DNA of 62,383 nt from an uncultured Gammaproteobacteria bacterium (GTDB taxonomy: Bacteria > Patescibacteriota > Patescibacteriia > CAZGFX01). Below the pieces are notes generated by a model. The model made no database searches. It was not told where the DNA came from and saw only the letters and a program-made list of their open reading frames with translations. Positions within the stretch are counted from its first letter, which is position 1; each line of letters starts with the position of its first letter. The DNA is taken from NCBI GenBank assembly GCA_964524845.1, contig CAZGFX010000001.1:1-62383 (forward strand), in the 5' to 3' direction. The position numbers and the translations under genes are program-made. Of this stretch, positions 1 to 10,163 are shown piece after piece.

Positions 1-212
1 TACGGTCTATGGTAACGGGAGAATTATATGCTTTTGGTAAGAATGTGTCAATATTGGAAAATGGTTGGAAATAGTAGTCTGGATTTGGTAAAAATTCCAG
101 AAGCCTAAAACATATTATTCCAAATAAAAAGGCAGAAAAGGAAGGGGTTTAAAAAGGATTTTTGCAGTTTATTTGGGTTTCATTCTCAAAACTTTTCGGC
201 GGGACGGCGGGA

Positions 213-1967
213 CTACTTTTCAATTTCTAAAATCAATAATTCGATTAACTCCAAAAAATGTTTTTTGTATAATTTCTTCCGTTCAGAATCCCCGCAAATC
301 TTTTTTATTTCTTCGCTTTCAATCTCCGCTTTTATTTTTTCTAACTTTTCTTTTCTAACTTTTTTCTCTATTGATTTTATTTGTTCTTCTGTGTAGCTTC
401 CCCAATTTTTAGATTCATCTTCGCTTAAATTATCTTTATAAATCCTGAGTATCGGCCAAAAATGAAAGAATTTAAGGATAATTTGAATAGTTTCCTCTTT
501 TTGTGAAATTTCTTTTATATTCATCATTTCAACAAGTTTTTTATCTCGATCTTCTTCGCTTTCATCAACAGATTCAGACCATAACACACTTACATCTAAA
601 ATGTAAAAATTAGGTTCTTTTTCTAGGGCATATTTTATTTCACTTTGGAAAAACAACATCAGGAAAGCTCTAAATAACGACGAATGCACATTTGGAAAGA
701 TTCCATTTATCACCTCTGTCAAATCCTTGTCAAAGTTTTCCTCGTTTTCTTTTTTGAAAATACGATCTCTCGACCATTGTAAAAATTCAGGCAAGATAAC
801 ACGAGCTATCATGTTATCTTTATTAGCAATTGTTATCTTCCACTCTGTAGGAAAATCGTGTTCCCAAATTCCATAACTTGACAACGCGCTATTTATTTCA
901 TTAAAAAAAGTAGGGCAAAAGTTAGTAAAAAGCCCAGTAATGTAATCCAAATAATTTTCTTTCTCTTTTTCATCTGTAATTTTTCCTAATTTCTTTTCGC
1001 TTTCCTCAATATGTTTCTTAAATGAATAAAAAAGCTGATATGGTCTATGTCTGTCCTTTAGCAGTATTTTAATTATTGCTTGAAAAAATTCTCCGCCAAA
1101 ATAGTGCCAATTCCAAAAACGCTCACTCTTTGAATTCAGTTTTTTATAAATCTTCAAAGTCCAACCTCCGAAAGTCGTAAAATGTTTTTGAGAAAAGAAA
1201 TTTTGAATTCTTTTCTCCGTATCATATGTTTTTAGCCAAAGTTGTTGTTTATTCCAAAGAATCTCGTTCCACTCAAAAATCTTTGGCAGAATTTCATAAC
1301 CGATTAAAAAACTATCTCGCTTTTCAATGTTGTTTACGTAAACTTGTGCAAGTTGAACGGTAAGATCAAGTTTCCCGAATTTTATGGAGTCGTCAACGTG
1401 AGATATAAAAATACTTATAAAATCTCTTTCATTTATTTCTGATTTTTCTGACCAAAAAGAATTCCACGATCGGAATATTTTTTCTGCCCTGTTTTTGTTT
1501 TTAAAATTGAAAAACTTCGAAAAACTTAGTTTTTTCAAAAAAGGTATTTCAAATTCTGACTTATATCCTTCTGAAAATCTCAAAATTTTCTTAAAAGGTT
1601 TCCAAAAAAGGTAAATTAAAATTATTGCGACAATTATAGACACAATTTTTGCTGACGACGAAGTATCAACACCAGAAAAAAATGCAAAAAATACTATACC
1701 AACAACAGAAAGACAAAAGACCTTTTTCGTTCCTAGCACTTCATCATTTAAAACCATTTTTTCAAATTCGCTTCTTTTCTCCTTTTTGGAATTCAAAATA
1801 TCTGTAAGAAAAACAATTGCAAAAGGAATAAAAATTGCCAAAACACCCAAAATAATATTTTGGAAAAACGAGGGATCAAGTCTTTGTAAAAAAGGATTTA
1901 AAAAATCTTCAAAACATTGCAAAAAGCATGTCAGTGATATCCATAATTTTTGAATTAACTCGGTCAT
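213..1967 (-). CDS. Hypothetical 584-aa membrane-anchored protein; last gene of the R-M-linked operon
   Basis: Long uninterrupted ORF that starts 13 nt after the res stop on the same strand. Hydrophobic segments are ILGVLAIFIPFAIVFL, VFCLSVVGIVFFAFF and IVSIIVAIILIYLFW. The following ~440-aa K/E/W/F-rich soluble part has no motif I recognise. Confidence 0.6.
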   Translation of the reverse strand: MTELIQKLWISLTCFLQCFEDFLNPFLQRLDPSFFQNIILGVLAIFIPFAIVFLTDILNSKKEKRSEFEKMVLNDEVLGTKKVFCLSVVGIVFFAFFSGVDTSSSAKIVSIIVAIILIYLFWKPFKKILRFSEGYKSEFEIPFLKKLSFSKFFNFKNKNRAEKIFRSWNSFWSEKSEINERDFISIFISHVDDSIKFGKLDLTVQLAQVYVNNIEKRDSFLIGYEILPKIFEWNEILWNKQQLWLKTYDTEKRIQNFFSQKHFTTFGGWTLKIYKKLNSKSERFWNWHYFGGEFFQAIIKILLKDRHRPYQLFYSFKKHIEESEKKLGKITDEKEKENYLDYITGLFTNFCPTFFNEINSALSSYGIWEHDFPTEWKITIANKDNMIARVILPEFLQWSRDRIFKKENEENFDKDLTEVINGIFPNVHSSLFRAFLMLFFQSEIKYALEKEPNFYILDVSVLWSESVDESEEDRDKKLVEMMNIKEISQKEETIQIILKFFHFWPILRIYKDNLSEDESKNWGSYTEEQIKSIEKKVRKEKLEKIKAEIESEEIKKICGDSERKKLYKKHFLELIELLILEIEK

Positions 1968-1980
1968 ATTTAATCTTCGT

Positions 1981-4668
1981 TTAAAACACCATTGTTTTTC
2001 TAAACGCCTCCGCCAATTGTTTAAAACTAGTCGGCTTATATTTATCCCATTCTTCCTGCTTCACATAAAGCATTTTGTATACAATCTTTTTCTGTCTCTC
2101 GCTTGCGTCCTTGCACCACTGTTCCAGTCTCTTTATCTTTTCAATATCATCTAAATCTTCTCGTCCCTTTGTTTCCACAATATAAATCGTTTTGTTATCC
2201 GTTTTTATGAAAAAGTCGGGATAATAACTGGAAATTGCGCCACTAGCATTTTTGTAATCAATTTTGAAATGAATTTCATAATAATTTTTTGCGAAGGAAA
2301 TCACATCATCAGCATCTTCCAAAAAGTCGGCAAATTCTAACTCAAAATCACTATCGCCAACAATTTTATTGAATACACTCTTTTTGGGTAGCAAATATTT
2401 TTTATCAGTAACAACAAACGGTTTCGCACTGCTTATTTTGAGATAATTTTTTATTTCCGTGTCTCCAACATCTTGCACAGTCAAGTTATTTATTTCTTTT
2501 TTGAATGTTTCCACGATAGTTTTAACTGCTTCCAACTCGGATAAATTTCTCAAAATATTTGCGTCATTTAGATTAACTTTTTCATTAAATAAATCGTCGC
2601 CGATAAATTCTTTTACTTTGCCGAAAAGTATATCGTAGCACCCAAAAAGACGCAGTTCTTTCATTATTCTTTGCACAAAAAACCCGACGACGCTTTGGTA
2701 GTTTGGTTCAATAGTGCTATTTAAAATTGTTGTGTGATGAAGTTTGTCGTCAATCACTTCCTTAAAAACAATTTCTTTCTTTTCTTCTTCCGAAAATTGT
2801 TTTATTGATATTTTTTCGTGCTTAAATCCGGCAACATTCAATAAATTAAGATTTTTATATTCTCTCTGTATTCTCGGCGTTAAAACCGGCAATTCAATAT
2901 CTAAATTTTCAATGTCTTTTTTTACATTCTGATTATCAACTTCAATAACTGTCGGTGTAATTGGCGAGCCTGAACGATCCATTTTTCGTTTTTCCAACTC
3001 AACGCCTTCGGCTTTGATAGATTCCACAAACTCCATAAAGGCAGGCGTACCGATAACGCTCACATATTCCTCAACATCTTGGCCGAAAAACATTCGGCGA
3101 AGACCACGACCCAGTGTTTGCTCCGGTAATATCTTTGAATCTGAACCAAAAGGGCGCAAACCAACGATTGTCGTTACATTTTTAACATCCCAACCCTCTT
3201 TAAGCATTAAAACGGAAACTATCACCTTGTAGGGGCTTTCCATGCTGTCTATCTCATTGGCTTTCTTTCTCAAATCTTGCAGTTCTTTTTCTTTTTTGCC
3301 GGTAACTGTTTCCGATATTTCACCGCTCTTGTTTGTATGAATGGTTAAAACCGCGCCTTTTAATTGCGGATAGCTTTTTTCCAAAAACTCCGCCACGTCA
3401 TCGCAATTTTTCGTGTCATCAGTCATTATGAAAAGAATTGATTTTTTGCCTGTCGGCTCAAGTTCTTTATATGTTTTTTCCCATTCTTCAACTCCTAGCC
3501 GGATATAGTCTTCATATTTTTCGGAAAATATAGAACTTTGTTTTTCTTGTAGCTTCGCTCGGCTGGCTTGATCCGGCAAAACCGGATTTTTTACCACTCC
3601 CTGATGTATTGCTTCAACCAAAGGATAATCAGAAACAGTTTGCACAAAAATTTCCCCACGATTATTTTTTGGCGTAGCCGTAACATCAATTTGCAAAGCT
3701 AATTTTTTGCCCTTTTGCAATAATCTATTATGTATATCTTCAATAGATTTAAACCACGCCATTTTTGGATCGTGGATATGGTGGGCTTCGTCGTTGATAA
3801 CCATTAATTCATCAACATCGCGGACTATTTCGCCCAAATCAATTTTTGAATCATTGGTTTTGCCGACAACTTTACTTCCCAAAAAATAATCCGATGTGTC
3901 TTCATCTTCAAAACTCGCTTCGTCGATACTGCCTTCATAAACTCTGTGAATGTTGGTAAGAAAAATATTTCCCGATTTTGAAATTGTGCCGACTTCGTCC
4001 TGTAAGTGCAGTTTGATTTGAAAATCATCTTGCCAATTTTGCCCACAATATCCGTTATCTGGTAAAATCGGATCTTCGTAAAATATTTTTAATCCTTCAA
4101 AATCAGTTTTTATCCTATCCAAAACAATAATGTTCGGGGTGATAAGCAAAAAGTTTTTAGACAGCTCTGAGTTTTCCTCGTAGAGCTTATGGAAATATGA
4201 CCAAGCCAAGAGCAGGCTCATAACTTTTGTTTTTCCGCTTCCTGTCGCCATTTTTATCACAAAACGGAGCCAATCCTCGGTAAACATATTCGGACTTACC
4301 CGCCCTAATTTATCAAACTTGATCAAATCGTATTTGTTGGCGACTTTCTCAAAATCATAAATCCAAATAATCGTTTCTACCGCCTCTCTCTGGGCGTAAT
4401 AATATTGGAAAGCAATACTTGTGCCGTCTTTGGCAAAAATTGTGTGTGGTTCTTTAAACCACCAATTCAAAAGAGCTTTTGAAGTTTCACTTGCGCCATC
4501 ATAATTATTTTTTCGCCACTCTGCTACCTTTTCCCTCAATTCCGGCACAAAAGGAGGCAAAAGCTTTTCATAACCCTCCTTGCGCAAATCCTCATCAGCC
4601 GGAAACCACCTGATTGATGGATCAAGGATTTGAAATTTATCTTTTGGAAAATTTTTATGTAGTGCCAT
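1981..4668 (-). CDS. res: Type III restriction enzyme Res subunit (SF2 helicase plus C-terminal PD-(D/E)xK nuclease)
   Basis: Helicase motifs are MATGSGKTKV (Walker A), INDEAHHI (DEAH), VTATP and QTLGRGLR. The C-terminus has YYPDFF...IYIVETKG, a nuclease-like motif. The gene is co-oriented with and downstream of a Mod-type methyltransferase. Confidence 0.85.
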   Translation of the reverse strand: MALHKNFPKDKFQILDPSIRWFPADEDLRKEGYEKLLPPFVPELREKVAEWRKNNYDGASETSKALLNWWFKEPHTIFAKDGTSIAFQYYYAQREAVETIIWIYDFEKVANKYDLIKFDKLGRVSPNMFTEDWLRFVIKMATGSGKTKVMSLLLAWSYFHKLYEENSELSKNFLLITPNIIVLDRIKTDFEGLKIFYEDPILPDNGYCGQNWQDDFQIKLHLQDEVGTISKSGNIFLTNIHRVYEGSIDEASFEDEDTSDYFLGSKVVGKTNDSKIDLGEIVRDVDELMVINDEAHHIHDPKMAWFKSIEDIHNRLLQKGKKLALQIDVTATPKNNRGEIFVQTVSDYPLVEAIHQGVVKNPVLPDQASRAKLQEKQSSIFSEKYEDYIRLGVEEWEKTYKELEPTGKKSILFIMTDDTKNCDDVAEFLEKSYPQLKGAVLTIHTNKSGEISETVTGKKEKELQDLRKKANEIDSMESPYKVIVSVLMLKEGWDVKNVTTIVGLRPFGSDSKILPEQTLGRGLRRMFFGQDVEEYVSVIGTPAFMEFVESIKAEGVELEKRKMDRSGSPITPTVIEVDNQNVKKDIENLDIELPVLTPRIQREYKNLNLLNVAGFKHEKISIKQFSEEEKKEIVFKEVIDDKLHHTTILNSTIEPNYQSVVGFFVQRIMKELRLFGCYDILFGKVKEFIGDDLFNEKVNLNDANILRNLSELEAVKTIVETFKKEINNLTVQDVGDTEIKNYLKISSAKPFVVTDKKYLLPKKSVFNKIVGDSDFELEFADFLEDADDVISFAKNYYEIHFKIDYKNASGAISSYYPDFFIKTDNKTIYIVETKGREDLDDIEKIKRLEQWCKDASERQKKIVYKMLYVKQEEWDKYKPTSFKQLAEAFRKTMVF

Positions 4669-4673
4669 AATAT

Positions 4674-5081
4674 TTATTTTTTCTTATTACATTGATCGAG
4701 AATATATTTAGACATTTTTTCAGCATCAGTACTTATTTTATTGTGCTTGTTCTGAAAATAACTGATCGAAGACGCGATTATACTCCTATAGAATGCATAA
4801 ATAGATATTAATATTGCAAAAGATATATACGCCCCTAAAACAACTTCTGACGAGACAGAAAAAATATTTTTAAAATTTGAAGTAAAAATCGGAACCCAAA
4901 CTGCAGCTAATGTTATTAGCAAAGAAAAAATTGAATCAAATGAAAAAGCTTCCGCAACGGCTTTTTTAAATTTTTCTAATTGTATTTGAAGTGATGATCT
5001 CTGTATCGATATATTTTCTGATTTTGGAAATTCATATTTAACATCACTAGATTCACTTATTGTTGGTTTTATAACTGACAT
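4674..5081 (-). CDS. Small hypothetical protein with two predicted TM helices (~135 aa)
   Basis: The ORF track gives 4674..5162. I prefer the internal Met (MSVIKP...) at 5081, which removes the 65-nt overlap with the upstream zinc-ribbon ORF. Hydrophobic stretches are IFSLLITLAAVWVPIF and VVLGAYISFAILISIYAFY. The stop lies 5 nt before the res start. Confidence 0.45.
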   Translation of the reverse strand: MSVIKPTISESSDVKYEFPKSENISIQRSSLQIQLEKFKKAVAEAFSFDSIFSLLITLAAVWVPIFTSNFKNIFSVSSEVVLGAYISFAILISIYAFYRSIIASSISYFQNKHNKISTDAEKMSKYILDQCNKKK

Positions 5082-5097
5082 ATCATTAAGTTTTATT

Positions 5098-5382
5098 CTA
5101 CTTTTTACTCTCTTCTTTATTCTCTTCCTTAGTCGGCAAAAGGCCAAAATTTCCAGCGGCAAATTCCAATAAATAACCGCAATTTTTACATATTAATGGA
5201 ATTGTCGGAATATTTATACCACCAATTGACCGGCTTTTTAAATCTTCTTGTAAATCATGTGCAAAATATCCGCCGCCAAAATCAAAATTTTTACCATGAC
5301 AAATTGGACATTCTAAATTTGGAGCTTTTTTTAGCAACTCCTCAATTATTTTTTTCTTGTTGTCTTCAAATTTTGTTTCCAT
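5098..5382 (-). CDS. Small zinc-ribbon protein (94 aa), hypothetical
   Basis: Two CxxC pairs (CPICHG ... CKNCGY). The start is 5 nt after the mod stop on the same strand. The C-terminal tail is K/E-rich. Confidence 0.55.
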   Translation of the reverse strand: METKFEDNKKKIIEELLKKAPNLECPICHGKNFDFGGGYFAHDLQEDLKSRSIGGINIPTIPLICKNCGYLLEFAAGNFGLLPTKEENKEESKK

Positions 5383-5387
5383 ATATT

Positions 5388-7532
5388 TTAAATATTAATT
5401 TCAATTAGTTTTGTCGTATCATTCCCAAAAATATCAATCACTTTAACAGCGATTTTTAGCTTACCCTTTCCGACCTCCTTGAAAGCCGAAGTTAGCTCAA
5501 GCGATCGGTCTTTTTTGGTTCTAAACGATTGCCATTCGTTTTCAAAAATATAACTTCCAGTCCATTCCTCTTTTTCTTCGCTTGTTTTTTCGTCAACTAC
5601 GCGGACAATTTCTTTCTTGCTTTCGAAATCAAAATCCACTGACCAATAATCAATCCAATCCGTCCATTTTTTTGTTAAAATTTCTCGCTCAATAATATCC
5701 GTATTTTTATCTTTAGAAATTTTTATCACTTGTCCATTTTCAATCACAATTTTACTTCCTCCGGATTGTAGTTTTTCTTCCACTTCGCCGGTATTGTCTT
5801 GGTTATAGAAAACGGAAAAGTCAGTCAGCTCAATCGCTACTTCTTTGGAATTGCCTCGTCCGCGAATAATCGGCTTAACCTCAATATAGGCGACATCGTA
5901 AAATTTAACCTGTCCTTTTTCAATCGCTTTTTTATCAAACACTTCGCGTGGAATAACCTTGAATTGAACATCTATACCAAGTTTTTTCGCGCTTTCAAAA
6001 TCAAGCCCCATTTCATAATCAAATCCCAAAACATCTGCTTTAGTAATGTTCTTTTCCTTACATTCGATGATTATTTTATCCAAAAAGTCGTTCGTTACGG
6101 GCATGTCAACTTGTCCTACAGCGACCAATCTATCCCTTTTCTTGCCGACAAAAGTATTGAAAGAATTAACCGGTTCGGCTTTGTAGGCGGATAAAATAAG
6201 TTTGATAAATTCTTTTTCTTTTTTATTAGCAATTTGTTGTTGAATGAATTGTCTTGAATTAACTTCATATTTTAATTCTTTGTCTATAGTAGTATTATTA
6301 ATATAGTATTGACGCTCATATTTACCGATGTTCAAAATTTCAAACGCCCGAAAATCCTTACCCGCTTTTTTGAGCTCTCTTTGTACACCAATCATTCTTT
6401 TGCGGGTGGTATGAATTGAAAACCTGCCCAAGTCCGAGCCAATCCATTTTCTGCCCAGTTTTTCAGCCACCGCCAAAGTCGTCCCTGAACCTGCAAAGAA
6501 GTCAGCAATGAGATCACCTTCGTTGGATGAGGCTTTGATGATACGTTCAATTAACTCTTGTGGTTTTTGAGTTGGATAGTCTAATCTTTCTCCACTTGTT
6601 GAAGCTATAAATGGTATATTCCAAACATCGTTAACTGTTATATCATATGACAAGTCATAGATTATCTTCCCAGAATTATCTCTTGCCCGCATGTTCTTTT
6701 TATCCTTCCATACGCGTTTACTTTGTTTGACTGGTGTATCGCGTAATTCCTTTTGTTCATTAAAAATATTTGTTTCTGATTTAGAATAAAATAAAATGTT
6801 ATCTTTAAATTTTGGGTAATTAGAACTACTGCGACTCATCTTATTCGGATAATACCAAATTATTTCGTTTCTAAAATTATTTTTCCCAAAAATCTCATCC
6901 ATAATCATTCTTATGAAACTATTCACTCTCCAATCACAATGTACATAAATACTCCCATCCTCCGCTAAAAGTCCGTGCATTAGTTTCAATCGTTCATAAA
7001 TCATGGCGATAAAACTATCAGCACCTTTACCCCATGTGTCGCGGTAGGCGATTTCTTCAATCACGGATGGCTTTTTGGTAAAACTTTCCACTTGTCCTGA
7101 GCCTATCGAAGGATCGCCGATTTCTATATTCATCGAAAAATCCGCACCAACATCAAACGGCGGGTCAATATAAATCAATTTCAGTCCGCCTTCGGCTTCG
7201 ATTTGTTTTCTAAGCGGGCCATTTTTAAGCGATGACAAAATCAGTTTATTGTCGCCCCAAATAAGTTTGTTTGACCAGCCCTTGATCTGTCTGCCCGAAG
7301 TATCAAACAAAGTGGTTTGTGCCGTGATTTTTTCTTCGCTTCTCGGTTCGTCAATATGTTCAATTGTTTGAAAAGGTAAAACAGTATTTTCCACTTCATC
7401 TGTTTTTCCATTCCATAAAAGCTCAACTTCTCGATCTATATCAAAAAGCAAAAAACGATATTTATCCGGCAACGGTTTGCCTGATTCTAAATATTTTATA
7501 ACATCTCTTTTTTCGTTATCTGTGAGCTTCAT
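5388..7532 (-). CDS. mod: Type III-like DNA methyltransferase Mod subunit (N6A/N4C beta-class)
   Basis: Motif IV (IYIDPPFDVG) precedes the AdoMet motif I (FFAGSGTTLAVAEKLGRKWIGSDL), which is the beta-class order. A ~330-aa C-terminal extension has no assigned function. The start overlaps the upstream stop in an ATGA. Confidence 0.85.
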   Translation of the reverse strand: MKLTDNEKRDVIKYLESGKPLPDKYRFLLFDIDREVELLWNGKTDEVENTVLPFQTIEHIDEPRSEEKITAQTTLFDTSGRQIKGWSNKLIWGDNKLILSSLKNGPLRKQIEAEGGLKLIYIDPPFDVGADFSMNIEIGDPSIGSGQVESFTKKPSVIEEIAYRDTWGKGADSFIAMIYERLKLMHGLLAEDGSIYVHCDWRVNSFIRMIMDEIFGKNNFRNEIIWYYPNKMSRSSSNYPKFKDNILFYSKSETNIFNEQKELRDTPVKQSKRVWKDKKNMRARDNSGKIIYDLSYDITVNDVWNIPFIASTSGERLDYPTQKPQELIERIIKASSNEGDLIADFFAGSGTTLAVAEKLGRKWIGSDLGRFSIHTTRKRMIGVQRELKKAGKDFRAFEILNIGKYERQYYINNTTIDKELKYEVNSRQFIQQQIANKKEKEFIKLILSAYKAEPVNSFNTFVGKKRDRLVAVGQVDMPVTNDFLDKIIIECKEKNITKADVLGFDYEMGLDFESAKKLGIDVQFKVIPREVFDKKAIEKGQVKFYDVAYIEVKPIIRGRGNSKEVAIELTDFSVFYNQDNTGEVEEKLQSGGSKIVIENGQVIKISKDKNTDIIEREILTKKWTDWIDYWSVDFDFESKKEIVRVVDEKTSEEKEEWTGSYIFENEWQSFRTKKDRSLELTSAFKEVGKGKLKIAVKVIDIFGNDTTKLIEINI

Positions 7533-7927
7533 ATATTGTAATTTTTAAAAGTGTTTACGACAACAGGACGTTTTCTATCGGGATAAATTAAAACACCTGT
7601 AATTTTACATTTAGGACAATGATAAAACTCGGGATTGCCACATGGTAACATTCTTATTGTTTTTTTCTGATCATCCCAACAACACGAACAATATGGCCCA
7701 TCTTTCTTTCCGTCTTTTGATTTCCAACAAGCGTTATTTTCATAAATCAAATCATCTTGAAATTCAAGACTGTCTTTAATTTTTTTGTTTTCTATCTCAA
7801 GACTATCTATCTTTTTCTGCATTTCTAAAATCTGCTTTTGTAAATCCGAAATAACACGATATTGCTCAATCTTTCCAACTTCTTGAAAAACTTTCCAAAT
7901 TGATTTTAATTTATCAAAAATCACCAT
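7529..7927 (-). CDS. Hypothetical coiled-coil plus Cys-rich (zinc-ribbon-like) protein, 132 aa; first gene of the operon
   Basis: The N-terminal segment is heptad-like (LQKQILEMQKKIDSLEIENKKIKDSL). The C-terminal segment is CSCCWD...LPCG...HCPKC. The stop overlaps the mod ATG by 4 nt. Confidence 0.6.
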   Translation of the reverse strand: MVIFDKLKSIWKVFQEVGKIEQYRVISDLQKQILEMQKKIDSLEIENKKIKDSLEFQDDLIYENNACWKSKDGKKDGPYCSCCWDDQKKTIRMLPCGNPEFYHCPKCKITGVLIYPDRKRPVVVNTFKNYNI

Positions 7928-7948
7928 AAAATATTCATTACACTTAAT

Positions 7949-7976
7949 ATTCTACACCTATTCTAAAAAAACTCAA
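7949..7976 (-). promoter_or_regulatory. Sigma70-like promoter candidate for the six-gene operon (TTGAGT-N16-TAGAAT)
   Basis: Minus-strand TTGAGT lies at 7971-7976 and TAGAAT at 7949-7954, with a 16-nt spacer, about 20 nt upstream of the start codon at 7927. The same motif recurs at 9235-9262 and in decayed form near 8203-8220. Confidence 0.35.
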
Positions 7977-8015
7977 CAATAAGCCATTTTTGAGGTGTGG
8001 GGTTTTATAAAAATT

Positions 8016-8144
8016 TTATCTTTTTCCACAAAATGCTTTTGTATAGCCAAAAATAGTTTCCGCATCAGCAATGTAAGTTTCTATTATTTTTCCGTCAGCA
8101 GACGGCAATTTCAGGTGGTCACATTTTGTGACCAACTCACTTCC
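8016..8144 (-). pseudogene. Decayed fragment of a second DinD/Bro-N-like gene
   Basis: A stop-bounded minus-strand frame reads GSELVTKCDHLKLPSADGKIIETYIADAETIFGYTKAFCGKR*. By eye it aligns with LLIDTEGGKQKINCANIEGIF of the intact neighbour at 8346..9191. There is no start codon and upstream frames are broken. A copy of the shared upstream motif sits at about 8203-8220. Confidence 0.35.
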
Positions 8145-8345
8145 TTCATTCTTTAGACGGTTTTTTAGTATGATCCAATATGTTTTTGCCCTCTTAATAA
8201 TCTAAAAACTCAATAATAATGGAATTGAATGAATAGTTTGTAATTTTAAACCATTTCTGTGGAGATAATACGAAACTATTAGAACCAACTTCATTTCTAA
8301 ACTGGTCGAATTCGACCCCTTTGAAATTTGGGTTGTTTAAAAAAA

Positions 8346-9234: not shown

Positions 9235-9262
9235 ATTCTACTCTCATATTGCAAAAACTCAA
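9235..9262 (-). promoter_or_regulatory. Sigma70-like promoter candidate for the DinD-like gene (TTGAGT-N16-TAGAAT)
   Basis: Same hexamers and spacing as 7949-7976. It also shares the flanking block TTATTNTTGAGTTTTT. Confidence 0.35.
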
Positions 9263-9276
9263 TAATAACTTCGAGA

Positions 9277-9430: not shown

Positions 9431-9453
9431 CAAAAAACCCCTCTTTCGAGGGG
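9431..9453 (-). terminator. Rho-independent terminator after rplA
   Basis: Stem CCCCTC/GAGGGG with a TTTC loop, followed on the minus strand by TTTTTTG. It lies about 27 nt downstream of the rplA stop. Confidence 0.7.
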
Positions 9454-9479
9454 TTTGTGGTTTTAAAATACCAAAAAAA

Positions 9480-10163
9480 TTACCAGGAGATTTTTATACC
9501 GGGACTCATCGTAGAACAGACCGTTACCATTTTTATATAATTACTCTTTACAGATTCAGGTTTCATCTTTTTTATATCATCAACAAATATTTTGCAATTT
9601 TCAGCTAGCTTGTCCGCGCCGAAGGAAATCTTGCCTATAATTTGATGGATATTTGCCGTACTGTCGTTTTTAAACGCCACCTTGCCTCCTTTGAGCTCTT
9701 TTACAGCACTTGCCACATCGTCAGTGACTGTTCCGTTTTTTGGATTAGGCATAAGTCCTTTCTGGCCAAGAATACGAGCAATCGGAGCAAGTGCTTTCAT
9801 CATATCAGGAGTCGCTATTGCAATATCAAAATCACACTTTTCAGTGGTTTTTATTTCGTTAATAAGCTCCTCTCCTCCTACAATTGCAGCGCCGGCCGCT
9901 TTTGCATTTTTTTCCTGATCAGGACCGCAAAACACAACGACTTTTTTATCTTTACCAGTTCCATGTGGAAGTGTTACGGTACCTCGCACCAACTGATCTC
10001 CTTTTCGAGGATCAATTCCGAGGCTTATATGTATTTCAACAGATTCATCAAACTTCGCCTTATTTACCGAAGACGTAAGAATTGCCATAGCATCAGCAAT
10101 TGAATAACGCTCGGTTCTTTTGATTGTGCCACGATATGCCGTGGTTCTCTTCGAGTGTTTCAT
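9480..10163 (-). CDS. rplA: 50S ribosomal protein L1
   Basis: Typical L1 sequence (FDESVEIHISLGIDPRKGDQLVRGTVTLPHGTGK) and position after rplK. Confidence 0.95.
   Translation of the reverse strand: MKHSKRTTAYRGTIKRTERYSIADAMAILTSSVNKAKFDESVEIHISLGIDPRKGDQLVRGTVTLPHGTGKDKKVVVFCGPDQEKNAKAAGAAIVGGEELINEIKTTEKCDFDIAIATPDMMKALAPIARILGQKGLMPNPKNGTVTDDVASAVKELKGGKVAFKNDSTANIHQIIGKISFGADKLAENCKIFVDDIKKMKPESVKSNYIKMVTVCSTMSPGIKISW

Follow-up and report, generated by a model that had tools for sequence, protein, structure and literature searches.

A type III restriction-modification locus of a Patescibacteria genome as an apparent mosaic, with a candidate partner cassette between mod and res

The question raised by the locus

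What are four genes that match no recognised family doing within and around the two genes of a restriction-modification (R-M) system of type III? The question arises from contig CAZGFX010000001.1 (62,383 nucleotides (nt), the whole of which is referred to here as the window), where six open reading frames (ORFs) run head to tail on the minus strand from 7927 to 213, all of them co-oriented and tightly spaced. In gene order these are A132, mod, Zn94, TM135, res and M584 (Table 1), and the four other than mod and res are called the partners in what follows. A sequence-only reading of this DNA had proposed that the six form a single composite defence system. The evidence collected below points to a different answer, namely that the locus is a mosaic in which three independently travelling modules are carried on a type III scaffold, and that Zn94 and TM135 form a cassette embedded between mod and res. 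Taken together with its conjectural steps, this account is put at a probability of roughly 0.5.

The six-gene block and its type III core

All six ORFs were recovered at the positions originally proposed, and the junctions as read from the DNA (in gene order, overlap at ATGA and then separations of 5, 16, 5 and 13 nt) agree with the spacings given in that earlier reading. Its choice of the methionine at 5081 as the start of TM135 is likewise borne out, in that the homologues begin at the aligned position. The promoter-like element that it placed at 7976-7949 is present, having the form TTGAGT-16-TAGAAT, and no convincing terminator was found inside the six-gene block; the six genes may well be co-transcribed from this site. 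Promoter-like matches overall are no commoner than in shuffled sequence, but this site falls within 34 nt of sequence of which a second copy precedes the Bro-N gene next to the block.

That the partners are genuine genes is plain, since homologues exist for all four (at least 239, 21, and 18 to 50+ loci) and their ratios of nonsynonymous to synonymous substitution rates (dN/dS, 0.05-0.2) show purifying selection. None has a match above noise in Pfam, NCBIfam, PADLOC or PHROGs, so that the original impression that they lie outside known defence families is upheld by the searches of these four collections.

The core is, as was also first supposed, a type III pair, and by its domains and motifs it is intact. 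Mod matches PF01555 (1.5e-48) and PADLOC MTase_III (2.9e-119), and its motif IV (DPPF at residue 123) precedes motif I (FAGSG at 346), which is the type III order, while Res matches ResIII (4.6e-17) and RE_endonuc (1.2e-05) and carries GSGKT at 143, DEAH at 293, QTLGR at 517 and PD...ETK at 817, motifs that mark it as a superfamily 2 (SF2) helicase with a C-terminal PD-(D/E)xK nuclease. In these respects, and in having mod upstream of res on the same strand, the pair resembles EcoP1I and EcoP15I. It differs from these canonical systems in that mod and res are not adjacent (mod does not directly precede res as it would in a two-gene operon, Zn94 and TM135 lying between them), and in the weakness of the match of Res to the PADLOC REase_III models (1.9e-20). 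The best NCBIfam match of Res, to the BPTD_3080 restriction endonuclease, falls below the curated cut-off (283 against 800 bits).

A search of species-representative genomes yielded 580 relatives of Res, of which the best 80 (63-95% identical to the Res of the window) were examined for context; in all of these 80 loci that have upstream sequence, Mod lies upstream of Res. Among close relatives Mod is conserved at its two ends (85-95% and 73-90% identical) and variable in its middle, residues 121-400 being only 41-68% identical, a pattern that fits target-recognition swapping, which would give near-identical systems different methylation specificities. The Res of the window is 86-95% identical to those of L001-L020, which come from genome bins assigned to many classes of the candidate phyla radiation (CPR) and also to Atribacterota, Gammaproteobacteria and a Pacearchaeota archaeon. 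Synonymous sites in Res are near saturation (dS ~1.3 at 95% amino acid (aa) identity, with dN/dS ~0.02), and because this is so despite the high identity of the proteins, it points to unusually strong constraint on Res and not only to recent transfer.

Table 1 Features of the six-gene block and of its surroundings in the window.
Feature	Position	Strand	Remarks
A132, 132 aa	7529..7927	-	Leader gene; ATGA overlap with mod
Mod, 714 aa	5388..7532	-	Type III DNA methyltransferase
Zn94, 94 aa	5098..5382	-	Zinc ribbon; first gene of the embedded pair
TM135, 135 aa	4674..5081	-	Two-transmembrane protein; second gene of the pair; maximal ORF from 5162
Res, 895 aa	1981..4668	-	Type III-like restriction subunit
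M584, 584 aa	213..1967	-	Three N-terminal transmembrane helices; last gene of the block
Promoter-like box TTGAGT-16-TAGAAT	7949..7982 (site 7976-7949)	-	5' of the block; holds the 16-nt motif TTATTRTTGAGTTTTT
Bro-N domain gene, 281 aa	8346..9191	-	PADLOC candidate PDC-S13 (2.6e-109), phrog_15286 (1.1e-84)
Terminator-like hairpin after rplA	9435..9456	-	Upstream island edge
Perfect sigma-70 consensus TTGACA-17-TATAAT	23..51	-	Downstream of the block; downstream island edge

Are the six genes a fixed set?

The proposal that the six genes constitute one fixed, co-evolved composite defence system draws on their tight spacing, on the single promoter-like element and on the lack of an internal terminator. 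The complete set, however, turned up nowhere beyond the source genome except in one contig of identical sequence across the block, and the locus is for this reason a mosaic of three modules travelling independently on a type III scaffold. Zn94, TM135 and M584 are absent from all 80 of the closest Res loci, and A132 occurs in just one of them. Conversely, 14 M584 loci in the genome collection have no recognisable homologue of the Mod or Res of the window (the sole match, in L091, being a marginal one of 86 aa to the nuclease region of Res, E 0.006), further contigs put M584 after R-M systems of other types, and those loci that do bear the Zn94/TM135 cassette have other genes, or nothing, after res. 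Set against all this, a fixed six-component system is scarcely credible.

As to whether the partners are linked to mod and res in other genomes, a check that the earlier reading itself had put forward, the outcome differs from gene to gene. Zn94 and TM135 came through a neighbourhood check as conserved and strongly linked to mod/res. M584 is attached elsewhere to R-M genes of other types, and A132 precedes methyltransferases of several families and is found in chaperone operons as well.

The mod-res junction as a slot for cargo

The presence of two genes wedged between mod and res, which the earlier reading had set against the canonical two-gene layout, is real, but it proves to be one case of something more general. 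Among 67 related loci from which both mod and res could be recovered, the two genes adjoin each other, with at most 20 nt between them, in 22 and lie 84-196 nt apart without an ORF in three, while in the remaining 42 they are separated by 381-2384 nt. These 42 wide gaps hold from one to four ORFs each, nearly all of them on the same strand, and the ORFs fall into about 40 unrelated sequence clusters. Cargo recognised using Pfam comprises NYN, KTSC, Schlafen AlbA_2 with HATPase_c_4, HEPN_Apea, DUF3800 and DUF4145; AAA_15/AAA_21 with an OLD-type TOPRIM, a ClpP-like protease, Bro-N and KilA-N; and an HTH-IrrE protein (HTH, helix-turn-helix) with a DUF4411/PIN partner. Matches found using PADLOC are to AriA, Old, GajA, AbiLi, HEC-01A, HEC-02A, HEC-09 and PDC-M38A. 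Many of the cargo families (NYN, HEPN, OLD/AriA/GajA-like ATPases, Schlafen and PIN) have a defence-like character, and in this Mod/Res family the junction of mod with res is generally a slot for cargo that varies.

Between loci with different cargo the flanks of the slot remain well conserved (73-90% identity over Mod residues 561-714 and 85-95% over Res residues 1-150), and on this ground cargo is probably swapped through recombination in these conserved stretches, the 3' end of mod and the 5' end of res. The type III pair can be pictured as a scaffold that varies at three places: ahead of mod, between mod and res, and behind res. A close same-strand ORF follows Res in about 40 of 61 loci, the products of these post-Res genes including PrrC/RloC-like AAA_13 proteins, AAA_15/21 ATPases, GmrSD and KAP NTPase, and a gene for a small HTH protein stands before Mod in about 10 of 48.

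In two sister type III loci AAA_13 proteins are encoded 11-16 nt after Res (L008:2614-4890, 8e-131, and L072:12708-15062). AAA_13 is the family of the PrrC/RloC anticodon nucleases, and its presence after Res hints directly that genes of the guardian type become attached to R-M systems of this family.

The Zn94/TM135 cassette

The two genes of the window that occupy the slot lie on the same strand as mod and res and between them, while A132 and M584 are not embedded but flank the system. For Zn94 the databases contain 21 relatives, 55-87% identical, across which the pattern CPxC...GGYFAHDLQ...R..GG.NIP..P..C.NCG is invariant. TM135 has two predicted transmembrane (TM) helices and a basic C-terminal tail; its relatives share a conserved cytoplasmic N-terminal motif, Y.FPKSE.I.I.RSDLQIQLEKFK, together with a C-terminal motif, EKMA..ILEQC, and both soluble parts of the protein are predicted to lie on one side of the membrane.

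Genome, metagenome and contig look-ups together gave about 20 distinct contexts for the cassette, two divergent Mod/Res lineages being represented among them. In every context with read-through downstream sequence a TM135-type protein of 121-156 aa is encoded directly after Zn94, and of the 22 loci with a called TM135 start, 20 have a junction between the two of -29 to +16 nt (the outliers being -47 nt in L127 and +40 nt in L123). Mod is immediately upstream of the pair in 16 of 18 contexts with enough flank, and Res is downstream in 15 of 16 informative contexts, sometimes past further cargo (L101 has trypsin-like, WYL and NYN proteins there, and L102 has DUF3800). By this reckoning Zn94 and TM135 are a conserved, translationally coupled pair that is almost always found between mod and res, and their dN/dS values against closest relatives (0.05-0.11) indicate purifying selection.

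Comparison of individual loci shows that the cassette need not share the history of its surroundings. Between L117 and L116 Zn94 is 87% and TM135 84% identical, as against 46% for the Mod C-terminus and ~48% for the Res N-terminus, whereas between the window and L116 the corresponding figures are 71%, 43%, 68% and 72%; the pair is 84-87% identical between lineages whose Mod and Res are only ~40-47% identical. The cassette and its flanks thus have separate histories, and the pair has moved between divergent type III Mod/Res lineages, coming to rest at the same junction each time.

One of the cassette loci (L104:1-4320, in the order Mod-Zn94-TM135-Res) gives long single tblastn alignments (Res 1-872 at 61%) and yet has many short called ORFs, which would be explained by decay of the locus or by an alternative genetic code in the organism.

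Searches aimed at identifying the two proteins returned no family match of any kind. A sequence profile search of the PDB with Zn94 found nothing, and TM135 matches no SLATT or holin family, its only Pfam hit being a sub-threshold one to DUF4481 (E 0.049). Neither protein matches a known toxin-antitoxin (TA) family, or contains an ABC-type ATPase or anticodon nuclease domain, in Pfam, NCBIfam or PADLOC.

A restriction-linked sensor and membrane effector?

The closest analogue for genes in such a position is PrrC. Encoded within a type Ic R-M locus, this protein becomes active once the enzyme is blocked by a phage peptide (PMC12707154), and it is reported to occur almost only in embedded position (bioRxiv 10.1101/2024.01.29.577857). 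Its proposed logic is that of a back-up which fires when the restriction enzyme has been neutralised (PMC12707154; bioRxiv 10.1101/2024.01.29.577857). Like PrrC in EcoprrI, the Zn94/TM135 pair represents extra genes inside an R-M operon and is near-exclusively embedded. Unlike PrrC, it has a type III rather than a type I host, it consists of a zinc ribbon and a two-TM protein with no ABC ATPase or nuclease, and it shows no sequence or fold similarity to PrrC; it is position that would suggest a guardian logic here.

By analogy with PrrC, the likeliest role for the pair would be that of a restriction-linked sensor and membrane effector. Zn94 could be a soluble sensor or adaptor that reads the state of the restriction complex, or else a phage factor that attacks the complex, and it would then control TM135, the putative effector or anchor at the membrane, which could serve for abortive infection or as a back-up and halt the infected cell. 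There is a resemblance, in architecture only, to RexA/RexB of phage lambda, a soluble sensor and a membrane effector that bring about abortive infection via the membrane: in both cases a cytoplasmic protein is paired with a small multi-TM protein, though four TM helices are present in RexB, and RexA is a far bigger protein than Zn94. Of the remaining partners, M584 might be a defence or sensor gene, either associated with R-M in general or standing alone, to which co-transcription is of benefit, and A132, before mod, might have a controller-like regulatory role. The fidelity of the cassette to its slot suggests functional dependence, but a part for the pair as guardian or back-up effector should be entertained only tentatively, and it is doubtful whether it is a dedicated type III guardian, in the sense of monitoring Mod-Res and killing or arresting the cell via the membrane when a phage disables restriction.

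Several observations weigh against these proposals. None of the four partners has homology to a known effector, sensor, toxin or holin, and fold searches of M584 and Zn94 gave only generic zinc-ribbon or helical-repeat noise; for Zn94, the AlphaFold model of which is of moderate confidence (predicted local distance difference test score, pLDDT, 69.7), Foldseek against the PDB found generic zinc ribbons with a best E of 0.2. Res is 95% identical across loci with quite different cargo, and there is therefore no sign of Res co-adapting to the cassette. It could be that the near-exclusive embedding is partly a matter of transfer linkage rather than of functional dependence. Lastly, the cassette copies in L122 and L127 are outside any mod/res context, that in L127 following a ribonucleotide reductase gene, which means that the pair can persist without the flanking enzyme. 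The L122 copy (L122:1-2566) stands alone and divergent to a large serine recombinase, with no mod/res within 6.5 kb, and may have been caught in transit on a mobile element.

The same body of evidence bears on two other readings of the cassette. On the main rival reading, Zn94 and TM135 would belong to the type III enzyme itself, as accessory subunits integral to it or as its regulators, rather than form a separate effector, for instance by tethering Mod/Res to the membrane at the point of foreign-DNA entry, or by delaying or limiting Res. Such a role would sit well with the translational coupling of the pair and its almost exclusive position between mod and res, with its long association with two divergent Mod/Res lineages, and with the prediction that the soluble parts of TM135 are on the same side of the membrane, where the conserved N-terminal motif could dock a partner. 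However, most close relatives of Mod/Res (Res 86-95% identical) lack the pair and have other cargo or none, from which it follows that the enzyme does not need it; the pair is able to exist without mod/res, as the L122 and L127 copies illustrate; and the other occupants of the slot are typically stand-alone defence or abortive-infection genes. On these grounds subunits or regulators of the enzyme seem an unlikely description of the two proteins.

It might alternatively be argued that the accessory genes are selfish or neutral passengers, that is, a TA or addiction pair together with hitch-hikers in a genomic sink, given that R-M loci accept insertions and are spread by horizontal transfer. The two genes of the pair are small and overlap and their membrane protein could be toxic, the content of the slot turns over rapidly, M584 and A132 are promiscuous across contexts, and one cassette lies beside a serine recombinase, all of which would suit passengers. 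What makes this reading rather improbable is that the four genes are under strong purifying selection and that the cassette recurs at the same junction in divergent systems, added to which no integrase, transposase or repeats flank the genes in the window and no known TA family is matched. The preferred account continues to be that of a mosaic with an embedded cassette.

The flanking genes M584 and A132

M584 has at least 239 close relatives, and 393 clusters in a library of 1.84 billion proteins belong to its family. Its three predicted TM segments all fall within the first 125 residues, and the AlphaFold model, a confident one (pLDDT 83.5), is all-alpha, with a cytoplasmic domain of ~460 aa. 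Foldseek against the PDB gave only helical-repeat noise for M584 (best E 0.03, TM score <0.25), and a sequence profile search of the PDB found nothing. In six loci M584 comes 2-38 nt after genes for an EcoRI-like methylase and a GmrSD_N-HNH nuclease, some of these operons being led by a small HTH gene, while its closest relatives (83% and 78% identical) are found 5-26 nt after an HsdR-like helicase-nuclease and a fused N6_Mtase/specificity protein. Two relatives come after Schlafen-group-3 helicases, and elsewhere the gene in front encodes a TraG/HerA-like ATPase, RhuM or else a small membrane protein. By these arrangements, M584 follows at least four kinds of R-M operon (the type III operon here and three others), usually at a distance of 40 nt or less.

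It is unlikely that M584 is an enzyme, because in distant members of the family only aromatic residues, E180 and R217 are conserved and no Pfam domain was found in ten of them. Assignment as an HD-type phosphohydrolase, using an "EHD" motif and other His or Asp residues, was considered and rejected, these positions not being conserved in distant members. A membrane-anchored sensor, scaffold or effector is more plausible. A phage origin for the partners was likewise rejected, as Zn94, TM135 and M584 have no relative in IMG/VR and A132 has one distant relative there.

A132 consists of an N-terminal coiled coil and a C-terminal zinc ribbon with an invariant CxxC...CPxC pattern, and has a dN/dS of ~0.13. 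In a survey of 50 loci in species-representative genomes it lies between -8 and ~+70 nt upstream of a DNA methyltransferase gene in about 14, to which L046 and the window may be added. The enzymes concerned fall into three Pfam families, N6_N4_Mtase (this Mod family and shorter enzymes), N6_Mtase/HsdM and EcoRI_methylase. Members of the family are also found upstream of RadC and Mur ligase genes, and beside an Mrr-type nuclease. As a small leader gene overlapping the start of a methyltransferase gene A132 is like those of the controller (C) proteins of R-M systems, and sister loci hold small HTH proteins at its position; unlike C proteins it has no HTH match in Pfam, and its family occurs before dnaK or dnaJ and before other genes. 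It is thus a possible candidate for a controller-like regulator of non-HTH kind. In several CPR genomes A132 homologues lie 28-45 nt upstream of dnaK or dnaJ within the hrcA-grpE-dnaK-dnaJ cluster (L139, L158 and L159, at ~6001-6400), a second recurrent context that is unrelated to R-M.

Relation to known embedded systems

The nesting of extra defence genes in R-M and related systems is already established. The guilt-by-embedding survey of Payne et al. (2024) covered Hma, BREX, DISARM and type I R-M, type III systems not being included, and reported that 96.7% of embedded genes had the same orientation, with many OLD/PARIS/Gabija-like and GmrSD genes among the cargo (bioRxiv 10.1101/2024.01.29.577857); TgvAB, similarly, is embedded in a type I R-M operon of Vibrio cholerae (PMC11411939). 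The present locus and its relatives resemble these cases in having same-strand genes nested in a modification-based system and a diverse cargo with fast turnover, and the slot and post-Res cargo of the type III loci is itself similar, including as it does OLD/Gabija/PARIS-like ATPases, NYN/HEC-09 and GmrSD. The differences are that Zn94, TM135, M584 and A132 match no model in PADLOC-DB v2.0.0, and that the hosts here are mostly CPR bacteria.

Literature searches found no report of embedding in type III systems, nor of the four partner families. What is new, then, is the type III scaffold, the new cargo families and the existence of one cassette that is faithful to its slot. Confirmed new anti-phage systems have come from genes nested in type I R-M, BREX, DISARM and Hma, and the same logic has apparently not yet been applied to type III systems or to the CPR bacteria that dominate these loci. 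With the cassette so nearly confined to the space between mod and res, a role as guardian or partner can be tested directly, while M584 offers a membrane protein family of some 400 clusters that follows at least four kinds of R-M operon, and a slot with about 40 cargo families in 42 loci is a compact hunting ground for further defence genes in uncultured organisms. Were the guardian interpretation to be correct, the pair would be the first partner of its kind on record for type III systems, and the mod-res junction of this widespread CPR family of R-M systems would be a natural catalogue of dozens more undescribed defence genes.

Setting of the locus and a repeated 16-nt box

The block belongs to a defence island which, in this Patescibacteria (CPR) genome, has been inserted so as to separate rplA from rplJ. 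The island comprises the Bro-N gene and the six-gene block, amounts to ~9 kb, and interrupts the conserved rplKAJL cluster; its position follows from the public contig identical over the block, in which the ribosomal protein L10 gene comes directly after M584. The regions that bear on the edges of the island are 1-212 and 9435-10163 of the window and L095:8113-8610, and the sigma-70 consensus at 51-23 presumably drives rplJ. No integrase, transposase or flanking repeats were seen around the island in the window. Relatives of the block genes come overwhelmingly from Patescibacteria (CPR) genome bins.

The exact sequence TTATTRTTGAGTTTTT occurs three times on the minus strand of the window, at 7967-7982, 8204-8219 and 9253-9268. 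All three copies are in intergenic parts of the island, and there are none elsewhere in the window with fewer than two mismatches; in shuffled sequence the mean number of matches at two mismatches or fewer is 0.83. The 16-nt box, which is absent from all 182 fetched loci, overlaps the -35 element of the promoter-like sites before A132 and before the Bro-N gene, and may be a candidate operator.

A separate copy of the promoter box, at 9235-9268, serves as that of the Bro-N gene. The possibility that the 420-bp spacer at 7928-8345 might hold a second Bro-N remnant was dismissed when tblastn with the neighbouring Bro-N protein came back empty. Bro-N and KilA-N proteins are also encoded as cargo between mod and res in the sister loci L065, L080 and L009.

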